Positions 1,631 through 61,642 of a stretch of DNA of 64,000 nt are shown here, in pieces. Under the pieces are notes generated by a model. That model had not been told where the DNA came from and did no database searches. It worked only from the letters and a program-made list of their open reading frames with translations. Position numbers and translations under genes: made by a program. The number at the start of each line of letters is the position of its first letter. Position 1 is the stretch's first letter. Source of the DNA: Gammaproteobacteria bacterium (GTDB taxonomy: Bacteria > Pseudomonadota > Gammaproteobacteria > CBDBNL01 > JAAOII01); assembly GCA_965207705.1 (NCBI GenBank), contig OZ242292.1, positions 1,545,309 to 1,609,308 of the forward strand, given 5' to 3'.

Positions 1631-4483
1631 ATGCCAGATATTAAATATTTATACGAGATAATTGAGGGTAAAGCACGCAAATTAAGGATTCTACAACCTG
1701 AAATACCAAAATATATTTTAGAGAATTTAAGACATGGTTTTTTTGAGTGGCAACAAGAAGCTTTTGATAATTTTTTACTTTATCAGGAGATAAAAAAAAT
1801 AGAGGATCCCAATTCCTACACTCATCTGATGTTTAATATGGCTACTGGATCTGGTAAGACCATGTTGATGGCAGCTGCTATTCTTTATTATTATGAACAA
1901 GGATATAGACACTTTTTATTTTTTGTGAATCAAAATAATATTTTAGATAAAACTATAAGTAACTTTATCAATAGCACCCACACTAAACATCTTTATACAA
2001 ATCCAATTTTTATTGATAACGCAACTATTTCAATCAAGGAAGTAGAGGTATTTAGTGATAATCCACAAGGTATAGAAATTAAATTTGCTACTATTCAACA
2101 ACTATATTACGATATACATACTGAACAAGAAAATAAGACAACTCTGGATACCCTACATAAAAAAGATATTATCATGCTTGCTGATGAAGCACATCATCTT
2201 AATGCTAACACAAAAAACATTACTATAATAGAAGATTTTTTTGACAAAGAGTTAAAAGGTTCTAAAGCAGAAAAAGAAAAAAAGGGCTGGGAACATACAG
2301 TTATAGAATTTATTCTAAAGAAGAGAAATCCCGGGGATGAAAGGCTCCCCACTCATAATAGGAATGTACTTTTGGAGTTTACTGCTACTATTCCCTCAGA
2401 TTCAGAAGTTATTAAGAAATATAGTGATAAAGTAATTTATAAATTTGAGTTAGTGGAGTTTCTAAAGAAAGGATTTACTAAAGAGATAAATCTGATATCT
2501 TCTACTTTAGATAAAAATGAAAGGATTCTACATGCATTATTATTTAATTGGTATCGGCATAAAATTGCACTTAAGCACGGAGTTATTAATTTTAAACCAG
2601 TAATACTTTTTAGAAGTAAAGAAATTAAAGATTCAAAAATAGATTACGAAGAATTTTTATGCTGGATAGATCGTCTTGAAGAGAAGAACTTTGATTTTCT
2701 TAATAATATTTCTGAAAGAATTATTGAAGATCGTTCAGCAGATTTTTCTAATATAGAAAAATCAGGAACTGAAAAAATTTTAGAATTTATTAGAGGTGAG
2801 AATAAAGGTTATAGTGAAGCAATAAAATGGCTAAAAAGTAATTTTATAGAGAGGAATGTAATTATCACCAATTCAGAAACAAATAAAAAGAAAACAGAAG
2901 TAATAACAGCGGAACAGGAAAAGCTTCTTAACAGTTTAGAGGATAAAGAAAATAATATTAGAGGGATCTTTACGGTTAATAGATTAACGGAAGGATGGGA
3001 TGTATTGAATCTTTTTGATATTGTTCGTCTTCATCAAGAAGAAAATTCTGGAGATAATGACACAGAATTTATTGCAGCAACAACTTCAGAGAAACAACTT
3101 ATAGGTAGAGGAGTAAGATATTTTCCTTTTACATATAATGATAAACCTGAAAGACAAAGAAAATTTGATGGTGAACTTGAACATGAACTGCGAATTTTAG
3201 AAGAGTTACACTATTATACTTATGATAAAAAATCACGGTATATTTCCCAGCTTAAAGAAGCACTAAGGAAAGAGGGCCATATGAGAGAAGATAAAGTTGT
3301 TAGAACTTACGAATTAAAGGAAGGTTTTAAAGAAAGCAAATTTTATATGAATACTAAACTTTTTTATAACAAAAAAATAGCTAATCCAAATAGAAAGAAT
3401 AAAAATTTGGACGATATTCCAAAGGATTTTTTTACCCCCTATAGAGTTAAGGATATAGAAATGGCTGAAGAGATAATGGATTATGATTTTCAAGAAAATT
3501 TACAAAAACTAAAATTAAAAGAAAAAGAGCTAATATCAATTAAAAAGAAATTCAAAGATATTGAAAAGCATATTTTTTTGAAGGCGGTAAACATAAAAGC
3601 TAAAGAAGAAAACTCTTTATTTCAGTTTGAAAAATTAAGTGAAGAATTGAATGTAAAAAGTATTGATGATTTGCAAACAAAGATATTAGCAGATTTTCAA
3701 ATAACGATTGTTGCTCCCCAAGGCACTAAATATGAAAACATTGAAGGGAAGGAAAAACTAAATATTGTGCTTATTATTTTACGGCAGATATTTGGAGAAC
3801 TTAAGAAACAAATTGCTCCTGAGATAGGTAGTGATTTTAGGATGAAGAATTTAAAAGATTTTTTCTCCAAACCTAAAAGTAAACTGATAGCAGAAAACAT
3901 AGAAACTAAAAATCTGGAAAATAAATTAAAGCACGCTGATTGGTATGCTTTAAATGCCTTTACTGGAACAAGTGAAGAAGCGAGCATGATTGAGTTTATA
4001 CAAGAAACTGTAGGCGATTTGAATAAGGAATGTGATGAATTCTATCTGTTAAGAAATGAAGAGGTTTATAAAATATATGACTTCAAGACTGCTAGAGGAT
4101 TTTGCCCTGATTTTATATTGTTTTTAAAAAGTAAAGATAAAGGAGAGTTTAAACATAATAAAACAATAACCCGTTCAGAAAAATATTATCAAATTTTTAT
4201 TGAACCTAAAGGTGAACAATTTATTGGTTATGATAATAGTATAGTGGGAGATAGTATTGATAAGAGAACATTCAAAACGGGTAAAGAAGGATGGAAAGAA
4301 GAATTCTTGGAAGAGATATCCAAAAGATATGGATTTAACGAGATTGTAGAAGCAGAGAATCCTAAATATAGATTAATAGGGTTACCTTTCTATAATACAG
4401 ACACAAAATTTAAAGCTATATTTGGAGAAAAATTTGAGGAGGTAGTTGAAGACCTTTCAACTTTTAATAACAGTCCTCAATAG
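1631..4483 (+). CDS. res: Type III restriction enzyme, Res subunit (SF2 helicase-like endonuclease)
   Basis: Walker A-like motif MATGSGKTMLMA and DEAH-like motif LADEAHH in a 950 aa protein, 27 bp downstream of mod in the same orientation. Confidence 0.85.
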   Translation: MPDIKYLYEIIEGKARKLRILQPEIPKYILENLRHGFFEWQQEAFDNFLLYQEIKKIEDPNSYTHLMFNMATGSGKTMLMAAAILYYYEQGYRHFLFFVNQNNILDKTISNFINSTHTKHLYTNPIFIDNATISIKEVEVFSDNPQGIEIKFATIQQLYYDIHTEQENKTTLDTLHKKDIIMLADEAHHLNANTKNITIIEDFFDKELKGSKAEKEKKGWEHTVIEFILKKRNPGDERLPTHNRNVLLEFTATIPSDSEVIKKYSDKVIYKFELVEFLKKGFTKEINLISSTLDKNERILHALLFNWYRHKIALKHGVINFKPVILFRSKEIKDSKIDYEEFLCWIDRLEEKNFDFLNNISERIIEDRSADFSNIEKSGTEKILEFIRGENKGYSEAIKWLKSNFIERNVIITNSETNKKKTEVITAEQEKLLNSLEDKENNIRGIFTVNRLTEGWDVLNLFDIVRLHQEENSGDNDTEFIAATTSEKQLIGRGVRYFPFTYNDKPERQRKFDGELEHELRILEELHYYTYDKKSRYISQLKEALRKEGHMREDKVVRTYELKEGFKESKFYMNTKLFYNKKIANPNRKNKNLDDIPKDFFTPYRVKDIEMAEEIMDYDFQENLQKLKLKEKELISIKKKFKDIEKHIFLKAVNIKAKEENSLFQFEKLSEELNVKSIDDLQTKILADFQITIVAPQGTKYENIEGKEKLNIVLIILRQIFGELKKQIAPEIGSDFRMKNLKDFFSKPKSKLIAENIETKNLENKLKHADWYALNAFTGTSEEASMIEFIQETVGDLNKECDEFYLLRNEEVYKIYDFKTARGFCPDFILFLKSKDKGEFKHNKTITRSEKYYQIFIEPKGEQFIGYDNSIVGDSIDKRTFKTGKEGWKEEFLEEISKRYGFNEIVEAENPKYRLIGLPFYNTDTKFKAIFGEKFEEVVEDLSTFNNSPQ

Positions 4484-4494
4484 AATACATTAGA

Positions 4495-5439
4495 TTATTT
4501 ATATTCTTGCCAATATTTAGGAAGCACTTTTTTGTATAAAATTATTTTGTTGTAAAGCCAGTCAAAGTATTCTTCATATTTAGACTGATCAAATACATCG
4601 GTAACTTCTTTGTATGTTTTTATATTAGAAGAATCATCGTTTAGTTCCCAATTAACTTCTTGGCCTATTTCTTTTTCAATTTTATCACGAATAGAATATA
4701 GGTATTTAAGGAAGTTTAATTTATCCTTAGAAAAATATAACACACACCCTAATCTTTTCTCTTTAAATAAAATCGTAGCGAACATTACACACCCAGAAAA
4801 ACCTATACCTGAGCTGCAAAAATGTTTTGGTATGGGTGTTGACACTTGAATTTTATCTCCATTTTCGTGAATATAATTTGTAAATTCTTGCCAAAAAAAC
4901 AATTGTTTTTCTTGAGTATTAGTTAATTCATTAGACGTATAACTAGAACTTTTAATTGTTTTTGCCCATTCATTAGGGCTTGCTACTATTTCAAATTTAG
5001 GTGCTGGAGGGCTATTCTCTATCCGGTAAACCTTTAACTTTACTAAGAAAAACCCTATTTCCTGATCTGTGTGTTCGTTTAGCCATTTAACAGCTTGTTG
5101 ATGTTCAGAGTTAAAACCCTTAACTATCCAAATAATAATTTTGGCATCATAGCCAGAAGCATAAGTGATTATCTGTCCAAGATGTCTATGATTTGTATTT
5201 TCAAGTTGATTTTCAATTATTATTTTCCTGTCCCCTATATTATCTTTTGCAAGTATATCTACATTATACTTTCCAACACTTGCTTCAGATTCTATAAGTT
5301 CTATATTTAACCCACCTATTTCTTCTCCTAAAATATCAAGGTTTTCTTGCTTTGCAAGCCATGGTGTAAAATTTATCGCCTCATTTGCCCACACCTCTCG
5401 CAAGTCAACTTCTTTTAATATTGATAGTTTTTCATTCAT
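4495..5439 (-). CDS. DUF4268-like protein with an N-terminal PD-(D/E)xK nuclease-like domain; RM/defence-island accessory.
   Basis: The N-terminus (LREVWANEAINFTPWL...VDILAKD...IIIENQLE...HLGQIITYASGYDAKIIIWI) matches my recollection of the DUF4268/NucS-like nuclease family. It is convergent with and adjacent to the type III RM genes. Confidence 0.6.
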   Translation of the reverse strand: MNEKLSILKEVDLREVWANEAINFTPWLAKQENLDILGEEIGGLNIELIESEASVGKYNVDILAKDNIGDRKIIIENQLENTNHRHLGQIITYASGYDAKIIIWIVKGFNSEHQQAVKWLNEHTDQEIGFFLVKLKVYRIENSPPAPKFEIVASPNEWAKTIKSSSYTSNELTNTQEKQLFFWQEFTNYIHENGDKIQVSTPIPKHFCSSGIGFSGCVMFATILFKEKRLGCVLYFSKDKLNFLKYLYSIRDKIEKEIGQEVNWELNDDSSNIKTYKEVTDVFDQSKYEEYFDWLYNKIILYKKVLPKYWQEYK

Positions 5440-6048: not shown

Positions 6049-6462
6049 ATGAAATTAACTTTGAAAATGGATATGGTGGGAATCATCACAAGCAATTTTG
6101 CTGAGATGAAAGCATTCTATCATGATGTTGTTGGTCTTGAGATTATCTTTGAGATGGAGGGTAATTATGTGGAGTTTAAAATGCCAGGTACACGTTTTGG
6201 TATTTCCACTAATAAAGTCATGGCTGAGTTTACCCGCCATCCCAGCTACAATGAGCTAAAGAAGGGACAGACGTTTGAATTAGCTTTTATTCTTGATACT
6301 CCAGCGCAAGTTGACGAGACATATAAAGAAATACTTGCTAAAGGAGCTAAAGAGGTAGCACAACCAGCTGATATGCCATGGGGACATAGAACAGCTTTTT
6401 TTGCCGACCCAGACGGCAATATTCACGAGCTATTTGCTAGTTTGCCAGAAGAGAATAAGTAA
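6049..6462 (+). CDS. Glyoxalase/bleomycin-resistance (VOC) family protein
   Basis: 137 aa with a VOC-like beta-alpha-beta-beta-beta pattern (GIITSNFAEMKAFYHDVVGLEI ... ADPDGNIHELF). Confidence 0.6.
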   Translation: MKLTLKMDMVGIITSNFAEMKAFYHDVVGLEIIFEMEGNYVEFKMPGTRFGISTNKVMAEFTRHPSYNELKKGQTFELAFILDTPAQVDETYKEILAKGAKEVAQPADMPWGHRTAFFADPDGNIHELFASLPEENK

Positions 6463-7179: not shown

Positions 7180-7290
7180 GTTGCGAGCATGGTTATGGTT
7201 TGTCTCGAGTGTTAGGCATCTTGCGGACGGAGCGCAGCTCCGCCCCTACAGACCTGCGTCGCAAGAATTCATACACCATACGGACGCCAA
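7180..7290 (-). repeat. REP-like composite palindromic element (copy 1, reverse orientation)
   Basis: Contains GCGGACGGAGCGCAGCTCCGCCCCTACAGACCTGCGTCGCAAGAATT and GCGAGCATGGTTATGG, which are reverse complements of the unit seen at 32301, 35275, 43520 and 58374. Confidence 0.8.
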
Positions 7291-8591: not shown

Positions 8592-9637
8592 ATAAAATTT
8601 TGTAATATTTGCAACATCTGCTTGGCATCTTTTGCTTGCGTACATATTTCATAAGGTGTCTTATATTTTGGCTGATTTGGCTGCTTTGCTGGGGCAGAAG
8701 CACGCGCACTAACCGCGGTGTAATACACAACATACCATTTTCTTAGCAGCCCCTGCAATTGAATTCTTTGGGTTGTAGTCCAACGACAGGCAGCAGTAAA
8801 ATCAAGTTGCCATTTTTCAATCTGTTGCGCCATTTCGTGTCCCTCATCAAACTCTTTGTTTGCTATGGCGCGCAGCTTGTCACTGATGATGTGCAGTTCA
8901 GGTATGCGTTCCATTAGCAGAGGGATTATTCTTTTTTGCATTAACGCTGGCTTTGTGGGTAGATTATCAGCGTTATCTGATACCACCTTATACAAGTGCA
9001 CCAGTTCGTTCGGACTAAACAAACAGGCGGTTGGGAAGAAGCCGGCGCTTTCCATATCTATGATGTTTGTGTCAATTTTAATCCCTGCAGGGTCGCTAAG
9101 CTTGTCATCGCCATCTATGCTCCCGCCCCCATCTCCATTACCCCCATTCATGTTATTCCCTCCATCTATGCCATCTGCCATATCTACACCACCCCCCTGA
9201 CGCGGATATTCGCGTTGAGATGTAGCATGGCATTCAATAGTTGCAGATGCAGAGTAGGGTAGCCGTAGCGGATAATAATTATTTCCGTTACTTATGTCAA
9301 TTATTTTATGGACTAATAGCCCTTGCCCCAGCGGATAATTATGATGACCGCAGGTGCCAAAATTAATCCATATTGTGGGTGGTGTCGCTTGAGCCCGCAA
9401 GGGAATTATTTTACTTGCCAAGTAAGAGGTAGCTGCAGCGCTGCGAACCTTCCCCATGCCGCTTACCACTAAGAAGTAATTTTGTTGTTCGCAGTAGTAA
9501 AGAGGAAAGGGGGCGGACTCCAATTGAGTAAATTTCCAGCGGTCAAGTAGCGGACGGGCTTCAGCTGCTAGGGCTATAACATAGCAAATTGGGATTAGTG
9601 AGCTAGATGGGCTAGGTGAGCTAGGTAGGTTAGGCAT
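8573..9637 (-). CDS. PNP/MTAN-family nucleosidase-like protein with a G/N/D-rich insertion and an ~120 aa C-terminal extension
   Basis: The N-terminus ICYVIALAAEARPLL and the later IDMESAGFF...VVSDNADN resemble MTA/SAH nucleosidase (PNP_UDP_1) motifs. It overlaps the GT2 gene by 8 nt. Confidence 0.6.
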   Translation of the reverse strand: MPNLPSSPSPSSSLIPICYVIALAAEARPLLDRWKFTQLESAPFPLYYCEQQNYFLVVSGMGKVRSAAATSYLASKIIPLRAQATPPTIWINFGTCGHHNYPLGQGLLVHKIIDISNGNNYYPLRLPYSASATIECHATSQREYPRQGGGVDMADGIDGGNNMNGGNGDGGGSIDGDDKLSDPAGIKIDTNIIDMESAGFFPTACLFSPNELVHLYKVVSDNADNLPTKPALMQKRIIPLLMERIPELHIISDKLRAIANKEFDEGHEMAQQIEKWQLDFTAACRWTTTQRIQLQGLLRKWYVVYYTAVSARASAPAKQPNQPKYKTPYEICTQAKDAKQMLQILQNFIQKVNG

Positions 9638-54373: not shown

Positions 54374-55708
54374 ATGGATATAAAAGTTCCTCCATTTCCC
54401 GAATCAGTAGATGACGGAGAAATATCAGCATGGCGTAAAAAAGAAGGCGAAAGCTTTAGTCGCGATGAAGTGCTGGTTGAAATAGAAACCGATAAGGTAG
54501 TCCTGGAAATACCTGCACCCCAAGCAGGAACTCTCACCAAGATAACAGTTAAAGAAGGCGCAACAGTTAAAGCTAATCAAGTAATAGGTACTTTTAGCGA
54601 AGGCGAAGCTGATGCGGCAGGCGATACAGCAGATGAGGGGAAATCATCATCCGCCGCTTCTGCAAATAAAGCGGAGACATCGGCATCAAGCCCTGCAAGC
54701 AAATCTGCAACCAAATCAACAAGCAAATCAGCACCGGCCTCTGTAGAAGAAGATGCGCAAACAACATCTCCCGCCACTAAGCATAATGCCACTAAACATA
54801 ATGGAGGAGGAACCAAAGCGGGACCTGCAGCGCGCCGTTTAGCGCAAGAAAAAGGAGTTAATTTAGCAGATATTGCCAAAAGCGCAAAAGGCATAAAAGG
54901 AGGAGAATTGGTCACCAAGCAGGATGTAGCTGAGTTTACCTCCAAATCTGCAACGTCACAATCATCTCAACCCCAAGGAATAGGGCAATCTGCTGTTGCA
55001 AGCGAAAGAGTACAAAAACGGGTGCCGATGACCCGCTTGCGTGCCAGCGTTGCCAAACGTTTAGTTGAATCACAACAAACGGCAGCCATGCTGACTACTT
55101 TTAATGAAGTTAATATGGCGCCGATAATGGAACTACGTTCCAAATATAAGAAGGCATTTGAAGAAAAGCACCTCGGGACTCGCTTAGGATTTATGTCCTT
55201 TTTTGTCAAGGGTACAGTCCTCGCATTAACCAAATACCCGGAAGTTAATGCTTATATAGAGGGAACTGATATTGTTTATCATAGCTATTATGATGTGGGA
55301 ATTGCAGTTTCTTCGCCACGCGGACTTGTCGTGCCAATTTTACGCGATGCCCAGCTTATGAATTTGGTGGATATTGAACAGCAAATTAATGAATATGCGG
55401 CAAAGGCGCAAGACGGCAAACTGATGTTAGAAGAATTGCAGGGAGGTACTTTTACTATATCCAATGGTGGAGTGTTTGGTTCTTTATTATCAACACCAAT
55501 TATCAATCCCCCGCAAACAGCTATCTTGGGAATGCATAAAATTCAGGAAAGACCTGTCGCTGTCAAGGGCAAGGTGGAGATATTACCGATGATGTATTTA
55601 GCGCTATCTTACGACCACCGCATGATTGATGGCAAAACCGCCGTTCAATTCTTATCAGCAATCAAGGACTTTTTGGAAAACCCTGGACTTATTCTGCTTG
55701 ACCTGTAA
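54374..55708 (+). CDS. sucB: Dihydrolipoyllysine-residue succinyltransferase (E2)
   Basis: Lipoyl domain [11 protein letters not shown]-rich linker, E3-binding domain, and the catalytic DHRMIDG. Confidence 0.9.
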
Positions 55709-55715
55709 TCGCTAA

Positions 55716-58373
55716 GTGAAACACTCCACACACCACTTGCTCCCCCACTCTTTGCTTCCGCTATTGCGTTTATTTAAGTTTATCTTTGCGCTGGCTTTTA
55801 TCATTTTTCTCGCCGCCTGCACTGATGATAAAGACGATGCTAAAACAGATCCACAACAACCCGACTCATCTACAATTCCTGGGGTTCCTGATGCGCCGCG
55901 TGTTGAAGCCATTAATTCAACTGCCATAGATATATCCTGGAATATGGTCAGCGGCGCAACCTACTATGAAATATGGCAGAACGGGACAAGAATTGGGCGC
56001 GACATAACCTTGCTTGCCGCTACAGACGTTGAGCTAATTCCAAATACCTTATATAACTACAGCATCAAGGCATGCAATACTTCTGGCTGCTCTGCGCTAT
56101 CTGTCGTTGCTTCCGCCAGGACTCCGGCTACCGACTCAGTCATCCCGAGCAAGCCCCTCGCTCCGACAGTAACTGCCATTAATTCAACTGCCATAGATAT
56201 ATCCTGGAATATGGTCAGCGGCGCAACCTACTATGAAATATGGCAAAACGGGACAAGAATTGGGCGCGATATAACCTCGCTTGCCGCTAAAGACATTGAG
56301 CTAATTCCAAATACTTTATATAGCTACAGCATCAAGGCATGCAATACTTCTGGCTGCTCTGCGCTATCTGTCGTTGCTTCCATTAGGACTCCGGCTACCG
56401 AGTCAGTTACACCGGACCCGAAATCCGTGCCAGCTACTCCTGGCAAACCTGTTGTTACGGCTATAAGTCCAAATTCCCTAAATATATCTTGGGACACTGT
56501 AACAGGAGCCAGCATATATAAGGTTACCCAAGTTATTCCTCCACGAACAATACCATTTGATAACATTAATGCCCCGCAGACCTATAGACAAACAACGAGC
56601 TTATCATCTGGCACCACGTACGGTTACACCGTTCAGGCATGTAATGTCGCGAGTGTTTGCTCTGAGCCGTCTGTTCCTGCTTATGGCACGACTCACCCCA
56701 CTGCTCCCATCCGCCCCAGTCCCGTTAAAGTCGTTGCGCTGAGCTCAACTTCTTTGAGAATATCTTGGGAGAGTATAGCTAACGCTGCTTATTATGAAAT
56801 ATTTAACGCAACTGAACAACCGCAAACATTAATCGCTAATATTTCTGCTCCACTTACCAGTCACATCATTGATGGTTTGATAGAAATAACTAGATACACC
56901 TATCACATCAGGGCTTGTAATAGGGCGGGATGTGGGGGATATGCATCTAACTCTGCCACCACTAGCACAGATAATTTTGCCGCCCCTAAAATCCGAGCAG
57001 TAAGAGCGAATCCTCCGTTTGCCTTGAATATATCCTGGCAGAGTCAAGATGATATTCATTACTATCAAGTCGTCAGTGACCGTTTCCCTGTTATCAGAGT
57101 TGATGCCCCTACTAACTATACAGTAGTTACAGAGCTATTACCCGGTACTATATACTATTACACTATTAGATCATGTATTACGGATAGTAGCTGTAAAGAA
57201 TCTTATCAGGGTTCTGGCATAACCTCCTCATTGTCACACGTCACAGTGAAGCTTGCTTGGGTTGACCAGTTAGAACTTCCCGCTTTCAATGGCTATATGG
57301 GTATATTAGATGATGATGCTTCAGTAATTCCTCCAATGTTGGTTGCCCCGGTTGATGACCCCGCTCGGCAATCTGTGTACATAGATTCTTTGGCTTCTCG
57401 TTTAAGTTTGGTTGGAGTCAGTTTTGATACCGCTGACCCAGTGAGTGAGTCCAACCTCAACGGAACTAATTTCCTTGAGACCAAGTTCTCATTAGCAGAT
57501 GCAAATTTATTCAATAGTGGTTGGGATGAAGACCATAGATTTGCGCGCCTTCTCAGTAAAGTTGCTGGCGGAGTATTCTTTGCTAACACAAATAGCTCTG
57601 ATATTAATGCAGCTGTGGTTAGCCCAGCAAATAGAATGGACTTGCAAAGCGCTGGTGTTGAACGTTATTTAAGATTGGCTGCGGGAGGGGATAACGCTTA
57701 TAGTACTGGCGCGCAAAATGCTGTTTTGGGCTATGCCTCTACTCTTCCGCTGCGTGCCCGCTATAACAGCACAGTGCAGCGTGCCAATAAAGATGAAATT
57801 AACGCTATTGACGACTTAATTGCTGTAAACATATCTGGGGTTACCGAAGATGTTACCGTTGTAGCGAGAATGTGCGCTCTGCCTGGTTTTAGCAGAGATA
57901 GTGATAATATTACCTGTGCCCAACCCGCTTTGCCAGTCGCAATGGAGTTATCAAATATATTATTGCTTGACGGCTACTGGAAAGCCCCAGTGGATGTAGA
58001 AGCAAATTGTCTTGGTGGTGCGTTTGATCCTGCCAGCCATTTTTGTGATATTCAAGGAAGGACTCAACCAGCACTTAACCCTGCTACAAATATGCCCTTT
58101 GGTAGCGTAACTAATGTTACTGCAGCACAAGAAAATAGAGTTATCCCTCTTTATATAAGACAGTATATTAATAGACGCGCTTATTTTGCCGCCCAAAGCA
58201 TTGATACTTATATAGAGAGTGGCGCAGAGGGTAGCGCAGGAATTACCAAACTAGCTGATGATGATTCATTAAACGAAGATGCTTATTATCTAATAACTGT
58301 TCAGGCATTGAACTCTGAAGGCACTCGCGTAAGCAACCAACTCAAGATGATATTTGAGACCAAAGTAGAATAG
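55716..58373 (+). CDS. Large lipoprotein with multiple fibronectin type III-like repeats, including two nearly identical tandem copies. The start is uncertain (GTG at 55716 or TTG at 55764).
   Basis: Lipobox LAAC. The repeated module ...VEAINSTAIDISWNMVSGATYYEIWQNGTRIGRDIT...YSIKACNTSGCSALSV appears twice at more than 90% nucleotide identity. Further degenerate ISW...YY..Y...AC repeats follow. Confidence 0.65.
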   Translation: MKHSTHHLLPHSLLPLLRLFKFIFALAFIIFLAACTDDKDDAKTDPQQPDSSTIPGVPDAPRVEAINSTAIDISWNMVSGATYYEIWQNGTRIGRDITLLAATDVELIPNTLYNYSIKACNTSGCSALSVVASARTPATDSVIPSKPLAPTVTAINSTAIDISWNMVSGATYYEIWQNGTRIGRDITSLAAKDIELIPNTLYSYSIKACNTSGCSALSVVASIRTPATESVTPDPKSVPATPGKPVVTAISPNSLNISWDTVTGASIYKVTQVIPPRTIPFDNINAPQTYRQTTSLSSGTTYGYTVQACNVASVCSEPSVPAYGTTHPTAPIRPSPVKVVALSSTSLRISWESIANAAYYEIFNATEQPQTLIANISAPLTSHIIDGLIEITRYTYHIRACNRAGCGGYASNSATTSTDNFAAPKIRAVRANPPFALNISWQSQDDIHYYQVVSDRFPVIRVDAPTNYTVVTELLPGTIYYYTIRSCITDSSCKESYQGSGITSSLSHVTVKLAWVDQLELPAFNGYMGILDDDASVIPPMLVAPVDDPARQSVYIDSLASRLSLVGVSFDTADPVSESNLNGTNFLETKFSLADANLFNSGWDEDHRFARLLSKVAGGVFFANTNSSDINAAVVSPANRMDLQSAGVERYLRLAAGGDNAYSTGAQNAVLGYASTLPLRARYNSTVQRANKDEINAIDDLIAVNISGVTEDVTVVARMCALPGFSRDSDNITCAQPALPVAMELSNILLLDGYWKAPVDVEANCLGGAFDPASHFCDIQGRTQPALNPATNMPFGSVTNVTAAQENRVIPLYIRQYINRRAYFAAQSIDTYIESGAEGSAGITKLADDDSLNEDAYYLITVQALNSEGTRVSNQLKMIFETKVE

Positions 58374-58475
58374 CCACACTCCGCCCGCAAGATGCCTAAT
58401 ACTTGCGATAAATCATAACCATGCTCGCGATGAAATCCTGCATGACGTCCAAATTCTTGCCCCGCTCGCAAGCTA
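58374..58475 (+). repeat. REP-like element (truncated unit with one half of the palindrome)
   Basis: CTCCGCCCGCAAGATGCCTAATACTTGCGATAAATCATAACCATGCTCGCGATG... directly after the FN3 lipoprotein stop codon. Confidence 0.75.
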
Positions 58476-58606
58476 CTCACCCCATAAACAAAACTAAGGT
58501 AATTTACCCCTTGAATTAATAATAAAAGCCCTTATAAAGAATATTAACAATAAGAATTACTGTGTTAAGGAAAAGCGCTTATATATTTAATAAAGTAGAT
58601 AATGTA

Positions 58607-60016
58607 ATGAAAAATAATCACATAGTTCGTGATCCTATACACAAATTTGTTAGTTATACTAACGAAGAAAAAGTAGTTATTGATTCCCCTCAATTTCAAC
58701 GCTTACGAGATATTCATCAGCTTGCTATGACCTATCTCATCTATCCAGGAGCCAGCCATAAACGCTTTGAACATTCATTGGGCGTTATGGAACTCGCTAC
58801 TAATATATTTGATGTCGTTATGGATGACGATAATCTAACCAAGAGATCCCGAGAAGTATTTCAAGAGCAATTACGCGACAAGCAATATTGGCGACAGACA
58901 TTACGCATGGCAGCATTATGTCATGATGTAGGACATTTACCATTTTCACACACGGGAGAAAAAATATTAGAGGGAATAAATCATGAAGATCTAACTCGTG
59001 AATTAATTAAGGGGGACATGAAGCAATTTTTTAATCAGATACCTGTCAATAAATGTGATGGAAGTAAAACATTAGATCCTAAAATAATATCCATAATAGC
59101 TACTAATGATTTTAAAAAATTAACAGAAAAAACTACAGAAGAACTTTGGAAAGAAATATTGAGTAGTATTATAACAAGCGACCTTTTTGGAGCCGACAGA
59201 ATGGATTATTTATTGCGAGATTCATGTCATATTGGAGTGCCCTATGGATTGGTGGATAAAGATAGATTAATTCGCTCATTACGTATCCTAGATATACCTT
59301 TGAATGATAATAATGATAGTATTCCTTTAGGTATTCATGAAAAGGATTTACCATTGGTGGAATCTTTATTAATGTCTCGCCATTGGATGTATAGCCAGGT
59401 TTACCAGCATCCTACTCGTAAGATATATGATGAACATTTACAAGATTTTCTTAAGGAATTAATGTATGAAGAGAGTTTTCCAGTTAGTGAGGATAGACCA
59501 GAAGGGTATTTGCAATGTACTGATTCTGATATATTAAGGGAATTATTTATGATACAAAATGATACTGAACACCGCTTACATAATCACTCTAATAAATTGC
59601 TAGAAAGAAAGTATCTATTTAGATTAGTATATAAACAAAATATTATTGATAAAAAGATATTTGAAGGGTGTTTTCTGAAAACAAAAAATAAGGATCCTTT
59701 TTCATTAAAGTTAAAAGAATTATACGAGCTAGCAGAAACCCCTACAGATCTAATATATGATAAAGTTTCCCGGAAATTCTTTGGTGAAATTATTAAAAGT
59801 ATTGGGAATAGTACTGACAAGAGGTATTTAAACTTTCCTGTAAAATTAGAAGATGGAACTATAAATGAGGTAAGAAATTGCTCTAAAATATTTAATCATA
59901 TAATTTCAACAGATTTTGATTATGGTTATATCTTTGCAAAACCAGATAAGAGCGGTGATATTAAAGAGTGGATTAAGAATAATAAAGATGGAATACTCCG
60001 CAATAAAATATTATAA
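58607..60016 (+). CDS. SAMHD1-like HD-domain dNTP triphosphohydrolase (COG1078-type). An alternative start at 58562 is possible.
   Basis: DPIHKFV...IDSPQFQRLRDIHQLA...YPGASHKRFEHSLGV, CHDVGHLPFSH and DRMDYLLRDSCHIGVPYG together form the H..H / HD / D metal-binding motif set of the dNTPase family. The gene is very AT-rich relative to its neighbours. Confidence 0.75.
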   Translation: MKNNHIVRDPIHKFVSYTNEEKVVIDSPQFQRLRDIHQLAMTYLIYPGASHKRFEHSLGVMELATNIFDVVMDDDNLTKRSREVFQEQLRDKQYWRQTLRMAALCHDVGHLPFSHTGEKILEGINHEDLTRELIKGDMKQFFNQIPVNKCDGSKTLDPKIISIIATNDFKKLTEKTTEELWKEILSSIITSDLFGADRMDYLLRDSCHIGVPYGLVDKDRLIRSLRILDIPLNDNNDSIPLGIHEKDLPLVESLLMSRHWMYSQVYQHPTRKIYDEHLQDFLKELMYEESFPVSEDRPEGYLQCTDSDILRELFMIQNDTEHRLHNHSNKLLERKYLFRLVYKQNIIDKKIFEGCFLKTKNKDPFSLKLKELYELAETPTDLIYDKVSRKFFGEIIKSIGNSTDKRYLNFPVKLEDGTINEVRNCSKIFNHIISTDFDYGYIFAKPDKSGDIKEWIKNNKDGILRNKIL

Positions 60017-60082
60017 TTATTTTTATGTCTTATTAACATTTATTATAAAATATAGAAGATATTATTAACTACGAGGTATATT

Positions 60083-60652
60083 ATGAAAATAGAGGATAGA
60101 GTTAAATTTATTTGTTTTTTACTTGACGCACTAAAAAGTAAAAATGGTTGGGCGGGGATGATTCATTTACAAAAAGGATGCTATATTGCACAGCGCATGT
60201 TAAGTATTCCTTTAGATTATAAATTTATACAGTATATTTACGGTCCTTATGCTTTTGACTTAGAAGAGGAGATACGTATAACAAATAGGAGACTTATACT
60301 GAGCAAGGGCTTACCTCCAGTTGGCTATGGATGTGCTTATGATTTCTATGAGGATATAGAAAAATATGTTGAAGAAAATAAGAATAATTACAAGTTCAAA
60401 GATGAAATTAATTTTATTGCCGGCTGGTTTTTAGATAAGAAAATAGGCAGGTTGGAAAAGCTGGCAGCGGCTTATATGATAAATGAGATATATCCTGATG
60501 CTGAACGAGAAGAAAGAATAAAAAAACTGATTGGATGGAAACCATTTATGACTGAGCCTGAAGCGCTTAGCTGTTTTGAGGATGTTGAGGAAAGAAATAA
60601 AGAAGTAGAAGAACTGGAGTTTATTAATAAAAAAATTAGCGTCTCAGGATAG
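60083..60652 (+). CDS. Panacea (DUF4065)-like small protein, paralog 1
   Basis: MIHLQKGCYIAQ...PLDYKFIQYIYGPYAFDLEEEI fits my recollection of the Panacea/SocA consensus (LQKLLYYAQ ... AWKYGPVVPEVY). 189 aa. Shares the RBS GAGGTATATTATG with paralog 2. Confidence 0.55.
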   Translation: MKIEDRVKFICFLLDALKSKNGWAGMIHLQKGCYIAQRMLSIPLDYKFIQYIYGPYAFDLEEEIRITNRRLILSKGLPPVGYGCAYDFYEDIEKYVEENKNNYKFKDEINFIAGWFLDKKIGRLEKLAAAYMINEIYPDAEREERIKKLIGWKPFMTEPEALSCFEDVEERNKEVEELEFINKKISVSG

Positions 60653-60743
60653 GCGCGCATACACCAAAGAATGATAGAAATTATTTCTATATTTTATTAA
60701 TATTTAATATAGAATATATAAGTTATTATTAAAGAGGTATATT

Positions 60744-61313
60744 ATGGAAGAAAAGGATAGAGTTAATTTTATTTGTTTTTTGCTCGGCGCACTAAAAGAT
60801 AAAAATGGTTGGGCAGGGATGATTCATTTACAAAAAGGATGTTATATTGCACAAGAAATGTTAGGCGTTCCTTTAGATTACAAGTTTATACAGTGTGTTT
60901 ACGGCCCTTACGCTTTTGACTTAAGAGATGAGGTGCGTATGTTAAATGATAAATTTATACTGAGTAAGAGTTTCCCCCCGGTTGGCTATGAATATGCTTA
61001 TGATTTTTATGAAGATGTAGAAAAGTGGGTTGAAGCAAACAGGGATAATTACAAGTTCAAAGATGAAATTAATTTTATTGCCGGCTGGTTTTTAGATAAG
61101 AAAATAGGTAGGTTAGAAAAACTGGCAGCAGCTTATATGATAAATGAGAAATATCCTGATGCTGAACGAGAAGAAAGGATGAAAAAGCTAATTGGATGGA
61201 AACCATTTATGACTGAACTTCAAGCAAAGGAAAGCTTTGATGAAGTTGAGGTAAAAGTTAAAGAACTAGAGGAAGTGGAGTTTATTAATAAAAAAGTTAG
61301 CGTCTCAGGATAG
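60744..61313 (+). CDS. Panacea (DUF4065)-like small protein, paralog 2
   Basis: About 80% amino-acid identity to paralog 1, with the same motifs (MIHLQKGCYIAQ, YGPYAFDL). The central ~170 bp is almost identical at nucleotide level. Confidence 0.55.
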   Translation: MEEKDRVNFICFLLGALKDKNGWAGMIHLQKGCYIAQEMLGVPLDYKFIQCVYGPYAFDLRDEVRMLNDKFILSKSFPPVGYEYAYDFYEDVEKWVEANRDNYKFKDEINFIAGWFLDKKIGRLEKLAAAYMINEKYPDAEREERMKKLIGWKPFMTELQAKESFDEVEVKVKELEEVEFINKKVSVSG

Positions 61314-61394
61314 GCGCGCATAAACAAACAACATAGTTTCCGTGAGGCAGGGCAACTTTTCCGCCCACACCATGCTCGCCTTATATTAGTTTGG

Positions 61395-61530
61395 CATTAT
61401 CTCCACCCATTGCTAACCTCCCCCTAACTACCGTAGCGGATTATCCAGTTTATGTCGCACTTATCGGTTCATACACCTATGGAATTCATGAAAAAAGATT
61501 TTGAGTCCCAAGTGATATGGGGCCATACAG
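61395..61530 (-). pseudogene. Frameshifted 3' remnant of a PhnB/VOC-like gene (paralog of 5489..5914)
   Basis: The sequence ACCGATAAGTGCGACATAAACTGGATAATCCGCTACGGTAGTTAGGGGGAGG matches the last codons (TDKYDINWIVRYGS*) and downstream CCCCCTAAC of the gene at 5489-5540. The upstream frame is broken. Confidence 0.5.
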
Positions 61531-61582
61531 CTATGAAAAATTATGAGAAATTGTGTTATAATTCCCACACATAAAACCTAAA

Positions 61583-61642
61583 GTGGGGAAACACAAAATA
61601 GGGGAAAACACAAAGGTGGGGAAACAAAAGAAGGGGGAAAAT
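61583..61642. repeat. Approximately 15-bp tandem repeat x4 (GTGGGGAAACACAAA-like) in the 5' region of the TRAP receptor gene
   Basis: AAGTGGGGAAACACAAAATAGGGGAAAACACAAAGGTGGGGAAACAAAAGAAGGGGGAAAATATG. Confidence 0.8.

Follow-up and report, generated by a model that had tools for sequence, protein, structure and literature searches.

In darT-darG pairs the effector gene lies upstream and the inhibitor gene downstream. The same order was found in the stretch of DNA analyzed here (the window, 64,000 nucleotides of contig OZ242292.1 from the gammaproteobacterial assembly GCA_965207705.1), in which a cassette at ~58483-61530 carries a gene for an HD-domain phosphohydrolase (HD) followed by two genes for related small proteins (S1 and S2). 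The C-terminal domain of DarG (DarG-CTD) binds and inhibits DarT (Deep et al. 2023, as cited in later work), and an independent 2026 paper (PMC13621843) states that DUF4065 proteins are homologous to this inhibitor domain. The Panacea domain is built around a central helix, with additional helices and a small sheet that bears a conserved GPV motif (Kurata et al. 2022, PMC8832971). Among the predicted PanT toxin families in Dataset S1 of Kurata et al. 2022 is T34/pT33, described as 'HD domain-containing protein' with the CDD hit YdhJ, gene order T|A and a gene spacing of -17 to +23 bp; it was listed from five Firmicutes genomes (Ammonifex, Desulfofundulus and three Caldicellulosiruptor), all marked 'notest', and no HD toxin is mentioned in the main text of that paper (PMC8832971). 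In the anti-phage system Clover the HD deoxynucleoside triphosphate hydrolase (dNTPase) CloA is restrained by its operon partner, the nucleotidyltransferase CloB, which makes the small-molecule signal p3diT (PMC12265719).

Compared with these systems, the HD-small pair has a PanAT/DarTG-like architecture with a predicted dNTPase as effector, and is widespread and unannotated. In both sequence and structure the small protein is homologous to the DarT-inhibiting DarG-CTD of DarTG; it differs in lacking a macrodomain and in having as its partner an HD phosphohydrolase rather than the ADP-ribosyltransferase DarT. As listed, the T34 family has the same arrangement, with a COG1078/YdhJ-type HD gene that lies upstream of a small gene of the antitoxin superfamily and overlaps it. 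The architecture is therefore already on record as an uncharacterised computational prediction, and the statement in an earlier interpretation of this DNA, made without database searches (the sequence-only reading), that no such pairing had been described was too strong. No published description of an HD + DarG-CTD-like pair was found in the literature, and a survey paper on dGTPases contained no relevant neighbourhood information. Clover is likewise a two-gene module in which the operon partner restrains a potentially toxic HD dNTPase effector, as is proposed here, but the small protein lacks an enzymatic domain, and its predicted mode of action is direct protein binding. The chemistry of HD triphosphohydrolases, the catalytic residues and dNTP depletion as an antiviral principle are shared with Dgt-type dGTPases and SAMHD1, which are single-gene, nucleotide-allosteric systems without a dedicated protein partner. 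The nearest solved relatives of the HD protein are EF1143 and Aquifex 2hek. EF1143 differs in being a housekeeping, dGTP-activated dNTPase, and we know of no protein partner for it.

The genes of the cassette and the duplication within it are as follows.
58607-60016, + strand: HD gene, 469 aa from ATG, predicted COG1078/YdhJ-type HD phosphohydrolase of the SAMHD1/EF1143 kind, proposed effector or toxin.
60083-60652, + strand: S1, 189 aa, predicted stand-alone DarG-CTD-like protein of the Panacea superfamily, proximal copy, proposed cognate inhibitor or antitoxin.
60744-61313, + strand: S2, 189 aa, second DarG-CTD-like paralogue, distal copy.
60015-60675, + strand: duplication unit 1, AT-rich leader and S1.
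60679-61328, + strand: duplication unit 2, leader and S2.

The three open reading frames lie on one strand (+) in the order HD, S1, S2, with 66 bp between HD and S1, all as the sequence-only reading had described. HD could also start at a GTG at 58562 (484 aa), but its homologues start at the ATG. The GC content of 58480-61400 is 31.8%, with a lowest point of ~27%, against 41.4% for the window, which agrees with the claim that the cassette is AT-rich relative to its flanks (SucB and a lipoprotein on the left, TRAP DctP on the right). S1 and S2 are 77% identical. A repeat search located the tandem duplication from which they are built, a 661 bp unit of AT-rich leader plus small gene with 82-87% nucleotide identity; repeat families D1, D2 and D4 fall within it at a spacing of 661-664 bp. 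Scanning for promoters and terminators gave sites no more numerous than in shuffled sequence.

The small proteins are full-length homologues of the DarT-binding C-terminal domain of DarG. Both matched the C-terminal part of the PADLOC DarG model (S1 at E = 4e-6, S2 at 3.7e-8). NCBIfam antitoxin_DarG was matched by S1 at 8e-5, with a best value of 1.7e-6, over its C-terminal part only and with 22-27 bits against a cutoff of 250. Utilizing the small-family consensus, the match to PADLOC DarG improved to 2.6e-15, with residues 5-171 aligned to model positions 163-323 of 329. The small-family profile also retrieved PDB chain 7yk3_B at 3.6e-5, which is the C-terminal domain of DarG in the M. tuberculosis DarT-DarG complex. 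S2 was modelled with AlphaFold2 (predicted local distance difference test, pLDDT, 94.8) and the model was searched with Foldseek; 7yk3_B and 7yk3_D were the sole strong PDB matches (E = 5e-6, template modelling (TM) score 0.63, full length), and secondary matches were to PadR/MarR winged-helix proteins at E 0.02-1 and TM ~0.3. No N-terminal macrodomain is present in S1 or S2, whose 189 aa align only to positions ~163-329 of the DarG model, and DarG's enzymatic (type IV) arm is thus missing. No adjacent DarT (DUF4433) was found; the upstream gene encodes the HD phosphohydrolase. S1 and S2 showed no nucleotidyltransferase similarity, their significant matches being DarG-CTD and PDC-M19A only.

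An exhaustive profile search recovered the small proteins as a stand-alone family of ~180 aa, with 682 clusters (50% identity) at E <= 1e-3 and 306 at E <= 1e-10. The consensus matched the N-terminal ~105 of the 294 positions of PADLOC PDLC04505 (PDC-M19A, a candidate defence model) at 1.8e-9, so that a DarG-CTD/Panacea-like domain may occur in another candidate system; a literature search for PDC-M19 returned nothing. Separately, the best viral structural matches of the small protein in BFVD were A0A2H4RBN9, A0A3Q8Q497 and A8TKI0 (E = 2e-4 to 1e-3, partial coverage), uncharacterised proteins of the Sulfolobus viruses SEV1, SPV2 and SSV4, which might be viral members of the same fold. A tblastn search of a phage collection with S2 gave no match.

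The sequence-only reading had placed the N-terminal halves of the small proteins in Panacea (PF13274). Direct membership was rejected on the scores of S1, S2, the consensus and the family members. Neither S1 nor S2 had a match to PF13274 at E <= 1 or any other Pfam match, and the consensus reached only E = 0.088 and 14.2 bits (cutoff 25.7). The model matched 4 of 96 family members (best E = 0.0025), left 92 undetected at E <= 0.1 and matched none of 10 further members. What stood was an antitoxin-type fold, the DarG-CTD homology above and a remote link to Panacea. For the latter, the small family was compared in hhalign with an alignment of true Panacea proteins built from the validated PanA of phi52237, giving a probability of 27% (26.6%) over 53 N-terminal columns. 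A model of a genuine PanA (pLDDT 95.2) also had 7yk3_B as its top PDB match but weakly (E 0.23, TM 0.46). In the small family Q30 and G54 are invariant and K31 and P55 near-invariant, on a helix and a strand equivalent to those of Panacea; a helix carrying Q-K..Y and, after it, a strand carrying G-P are reminiscent of the GPV motif. The small family, DarG-CTD and Panacea were read as one remote superfamily in which the window proteins lie much nearer to DarG-CTD.

The HD protein matched Pfam HD (PF01966) at 4.5e-9 with 37.1 bits (cutoff 22) and HD_assoc_2 (PF19276) at 2.3e-8 with 34.2 bits (cutoff 23.1), both above the curated cutoffs. In the PDB it matched Aquifex 2hek at 6e-37, E. faecalis EF1143 at 4e-27 and SAMHD1 at ~1e-21; with the profile of its clade the values were 8e-81 (nearly full length), 5e-45 and 1e-37. 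The invariant columns of the clade are, in window numbering, R53, H56, H106, D107, H110, H115, H126, E127, D197, Y201 and D205, and these align in the same order to SAMHD1 residues R164, H167, H206, D207, H210, H215, H233, E234, D311, Y315 and D319. The full SAMHD1/EF1143 motif set claimed for the protein (H..HD..D) was thereby found together with further catalytic positions. The HD protein is very probably an active triphosphohydrolase, with dNTPs as its presumed substrate. Membership of the Dgt-type dGTPases was rejected, as the defence models matched the N-terminal ~100 residues only and far below their cutoffs: the PADLOC dGTPase model covered residues 18-124 (E = 4e-10) and NCBIfam antiphage_dGTPase gave 28.5 bits against a cutoff of 400.

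The pairing was traced with a degenerate DNA pattern, derived from the small-protein motifs H-x-Q-K and [YH]GP[YF]xFxL, that was run against a single genome of each species. This gave 119 loci, each with a bona fide member of the small family. The bacterial loci were from Acidobacteriota, Chloroflexota, Planctomycetota, Verrucomicrobiota, Nitrospirota, Desulfobacterota, Alpha- and Gammaproteobacteria, Bacillota, Actinomycetota, Latescibacterota, Hydrogenedentota and Spirochaetota, and the archaeal loci from Methanothrix, Methanosarcinales and Methanoculleus; the pair thus spans more than 12 bacterial phyla and methanogens. Upstream sequence was sufficient at 109 loci, and at 96 of these (~88%) the small gene was directly preceded on its strand by an HD homologue, often overlapping, mostly with E = 1e-70 to 1e-96. 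In the reverse direction, the small gene was directly downstream at 81 of 85 evaluable loci retrieved by HD (~95%); three of the four misses were explained, one by a frame-calling artefact and two as giant-virus HD proteins of 29% identity. The pairing is near-obligate in both directions, and co-occurrence across genomes, which the sequence-only reading had put forward for checking, was strongly positive. With 88% of small genes paired with the same HD family, the promiscuous toxin pairing typical of Panacea was not found; the small family, unlike PanA, is partner-specific.

Of the 13 exceptions, 12 were orphan small genes; at the other (L049) the small gene is fused in frame to a remnant of HD. 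Ten orphan loci were scanned: four had unrelated neighbours (TetR, TctC, hydrogenase, aminotransferase), one a neighbour without family match and four defence-like neighbours (PDDEXK nuclease, UvrD, AAA_21 ATPase, M78 peptidase), and no alternative partner recurred. Orphans numbered ~12 small genes against 1-2 HD genes of the clade, as toxin-antitoxin decay, in which the antitoxin outlives the toxin, predicts. The traits of type II toxin-antitoxin pairs that were found are a compact co-directional gene pair, mobility, multiple copies and this asymmetry of decay.

Two small genes are a peculiarity of the window lineage and rare elsewhere: a second small-family match was found at 4 of the 119 loci of other species, and two of those four look frameshifted. 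Both copies are under purifying selection (Ka/Ks 0.26-0.36 for S1 and 0.36 for S2; range 0.26-0.47 overall). Across cassettes S1 tracks HD, HD identities of 91, 84 and 71% corresponding to S1 identities of 89, 86 and 61%. S2 does not: the second small protein of cassette L001 is 85% identical to window S2, and the first small protein of L001 is only 61-62% identical to the window small proteins. The nearest relatives of S2 (84-85%) are that second protein of L001 and the small genes of the L004/L005 cassette type.

The region ~58483-61530 is one copy of a mobile two-component cassette. Its ends and flanks in the window are as follows.
54374-55708, SucB, then 55716-58373 (+ strand), an 885-aa repeat lipoprotein: left flank genes.
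58374-58482, + strand: REP-like (repetitive extragenic palindromic) repeat region immediately left of the cassette, with a core copy of GCTCCGCCCGCAAGATG type at 58378-58394.
58483-58606, + strand: conserved 5' leader, the left cassette end (at ~58483 in junction alignments), beginning CCATAAACAAAACTAAGGTAATTTACCCCTTGAATTAAT.
61314-~61530 (~220 bp), + strand: conserved non-coding 3' tail, the right cassette end, placed by junction alignments.
TRAP DctP protein: right flank gene.

The 5' leader is nearly identical in the window and in cassettes L212, L005 and L004 despite different upstream genes. The 3' tail after the last small gene is retained at full length in L001, L003 and L004 and as its first half only in L005 and L212, and the copies that conserve it occupy different chromosomal sites. 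The 'pseudogene remnant' that had been proposed on the right is therefore part of the cassette, a conserved non-coding tail. A cassette-specific 21-mer, CGGATTATCCAGTTTATGTCG, lies within the tail at 61437-61457 and occurs once in the window. The tail had no Rfam match, a fold z of -0.64 and no open reading frame above 40 aa, and its reading as a structured RNA or a small open reading frame was rejected. Leader and tail are conserved in copies at no fewer than 5 chromosomal sites, and both start with CATAAACAAA.

The REP element proposed on the left was recovered: the REP-like GCTCCGCCCGCAAGATG occurs in 7 copies in the window (at 7217, 32413, 32521, 35383, 35525, 43561 and 58378) against 0.13 expected, and the repeat also precedes cassettes L004, L005 and L212 at other chromosomal sites. 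In related genomes GCTCCGCCCGCAAGATG often forms an inverted pair with GTAGGGGCGGAGC and repeatedly adjoins cassette insertions. A repeat search found no convincing inverted or direct repeats at the termini of the window cassette, which carries neither an integrase nor a transposase. At L002 the cassette-specific 21-mer of window positions 61437-61457, here CGGAYTATCCAGTTTATRTCG, is a direct repeat on both sides of the cassette (6319-6339 and 8658-8678); it could be an att-like site or a relic of a tandem cassette. Close relatives of the cassette are confined to a few genomes of ~2 Mb, each with 3-4 HD paralogues and several small paralogues. Being AT-rich and multi-copy, at different sites and with conserved ends, the cassette looks horizontally acquired, as had been suggested.

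Several cassettes are present per genome, set among housekeeping genes at these sites.
L001: after a T5orf172 gene.
L002: adjoining a type III restriction-modification (R-M) system.
L003: near rpmF, with HD broken and the small gene intact.
L004: between ctaB and aroB-like genes, with two flanking tRNA-Ser genes.
L005 and L212: after ferrochelatase and an SMC-like/RadC pair.

At L003 (7012-7793) HD is reduced to fragments of 101 and 145 aa and the 189-aa small gene downstream is intact, which is the decay expected of a toxin-antitoxin pair. The L004 copy lies exactly between the tRNA-Ser genes at 6064-6152 and 8899-8988 (anticodons GGA and CGA). Directly upstream of the cassette in L005 (2833-5482) and L212 (3105-5700) are overlapping genes for a 594-aa SMC_N/AAA_23 ATPase and a 282-300-aa protein, the latter RadC/JAB-like in L212; this pair may be a separate defence-type module. 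In the window, the 885-aa putative lipoprotein directly upstream of the cassette (55716-58373, + strand) contains near-identical internal repeats of ~95 aa similar to fibronectin type III domains, with for example EAINSTAIDISWNMVSGATYYEIWQNGTRIGRDIT present twice. On the other side, at 61573-61638, a 16-17-nt unit (AAACACAAARGTGGGGA-like) is repeated three times in tandem, either close upstream of the TRAP DctP gene or reaching into its 5' end.

Beyond this lineage, 148 immediate neighbours were sampled across phyla. The recurrent families of defence or mobile-element kind among them were DUF1156/HmaB methylases and HmaA, BrxH, DrmD and DpdF-type helicases (Hma, BREX, DISARM and Dpd types), NOV_C, mad2, TmtA, PsyrT, type I and II methylases, S24/M78 peptidases with helix-turn-helix domains, a transposase and a dCTP deaminase. 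On two IMG/VR contigs the HD-small pair lies beside integrases at a prophage edge, in these gene orders.
L207: terminase, serine recombinase, HD, small gene, HsdR.
L209: tail-like protein, HD, small gene, tyrosine integrase, UvrD.
These uncontrolled neighbourhood samples are suggestive of a defence or mobile-element context. On metagenome contig L193 a two-domain dCTP deaminase (DCD_N + DCD_C, E = 1e-87; 4075-5286, - strand) adjoins the HD-small pair, and two nucleotide-pool enzymes are therefore adjacent there.

From the homology, pairing and mobility, HD and the small protein are proposed to form a module for defence or of toxin-antitoxin-like type, the dNTPase being bound and restrained by the small protein, a reading to which we give about even credence. 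The small protein would bind the HD enzyme directly and keep it inactive, as the DarG-CTD does with DarT. If the inhibitor disappeared, was titrated away or was displaced, as might follow from phage infection or from cassette loss, the freed HD enzyme would hydrolyse dNTPs and DNA replication would stop, with phage defence or post-segregational addiction as the outcome. The proximal small copy co-evolves with HD and would be its cognate inhibitor; the distal copy is of another cassette type, and paralogous HD enzymes of that genome may be cross-neutralised by it. Binding, inhibition, toxicity, dNTPs as the substrate and a role in defence are all inferred at this point. More tentatively, and with somewhat less than even confidence, the pair would be a pan-prokaryotic immune or addiction module that works by nucleotide depletion, a SAMHD1-type dNTPase gated by a protein inhibitor, with the extra, non-cognate small copies of multi-cassette genomes serving as cross-immunity (anti-addiction) genes between cassettes that compete.

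Several observations weigh against a restrained toxin. Most of the 148 neighbours are housekeeping genes, and the share of defence and mobile-element genes among them is ~10-15%, a value without matched control. PADLOC-DB v2 recognised no known system at the locus. A mobile toxin would not usually be as conserved as the HD protein, which keeps ~40% identity across phyla. COG1078 enzymes, EF1143 among them, are dNTPases of the ordinary kind and not toxic. The median isoelectric point of the small family is 6.84, so the family is not uniformly acidic (S1 and S2 themselves are acidic) and a general nucleic-acid-mimic mechanism, judged by overall acidity, is unsupported family-wide. Lastly, the model of the small protein suggests a winged-helix-like N-terminal part, with which the protein could act on DNA.

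The conservation of HD and its housekeeping neighbours, together with the near 1:1 linkage and overlapping genes seen in obligate hetero-oligomers and with EF1143 and 2hek-type relatives that are not known toxins, would also suit a two-subunit enzyme that is regulated but not toxic. The small protein would then serve for regulation, specificity or assembly, perhaps as an activator, and the pair would have a metabolic task, sanitising dNTP pools, and none in conflict. We consider this unlikely, though the strongest of the competing explanations. It sits poorly with a patchy, island-like distribution in multiple copies with mobile ends and one degraded HD, with a cassette AT-rich against its host, with the recurrence of prophage-edge, R-M and BREX-type neighbours, with the only characterised homologue of the partner being an antitoxin domain, and with orphan small genes outnumbering orphan HD genes. 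An effector of the same toxin-antitoxin or defence type acting on another substrate (NTPs, signalling nucleotides or single-stranded nucleic acid) is improbable: the HD superfamily is catalytically diverse, its specificity is not readable from sequence, and PDB 2q14 ('Phosphohydrolase') and 2hek have no assigned function, but the whole SAMHD1 residue set is invariant, including the H-E dyad and the D..Y..D segment.

The remaining explanations concern the small protein and are both given very little weight. Many type II antitoxins repress their own promoters, and the secondary PadR/MarR Foldseek matches and a weak DUF4364 match would fit a small protein that is mainly a PadR/MarR-type winged-helix autoregulator, its likeness to DarG-CTD being one of fold only. 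Opposed to this are the TM of 0.3 for PadR against 0.63 for 7yk3_B, the full-length DarG-CTD sequence similarity at 2.6e-15, a promoter scan without enrichment and a gene overlap that suggests that stoichiometric co-production matters. The Panacea superfamily includes the ClpXP adaptor SocA (PMC8832971), and the remotely Panacea-like small protein might accordingly hand HD over to ClpXP or Lon, which would degrade it constantly in the manner of type VI toxin-antitoxin systems, an alternative that the sequence-only reading had raised; the family is, however, much closer to DarG-CTD, a direct binder, than to Panacea, validated PanA proteins bind directly, and no protease gene is linked to the pair. 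Direct restraint of the HD enzyme by the small protein is the reading retained here.

Because neither Pfam Panacea nor PADLOC detects this near-obligate pairing, which reaches across more than a dozen phyla and the methanogens, it is maybe a large unrecognised family. If the proposed module is correct, it would be the first dNTPase effector under a proteinaceous antitoxin, and SAMHD1-like immunity would be tied to the DarG/Panacea superfamily. That superfamily would be extended by a new partner-specific branch, and the multi-copy cassettes with swapped second small genes would offer a natural system for studying cassette competition. Depletion of dNTPs (by SAMHD1, bacterial dGTPase, dCTP deaminase and Clover) is a central antiviral theme in which self-protection is largely unknown; the module would offer a candidate answer, a dedicated inhibitor homologous to the toxin-binding domain of DarG.

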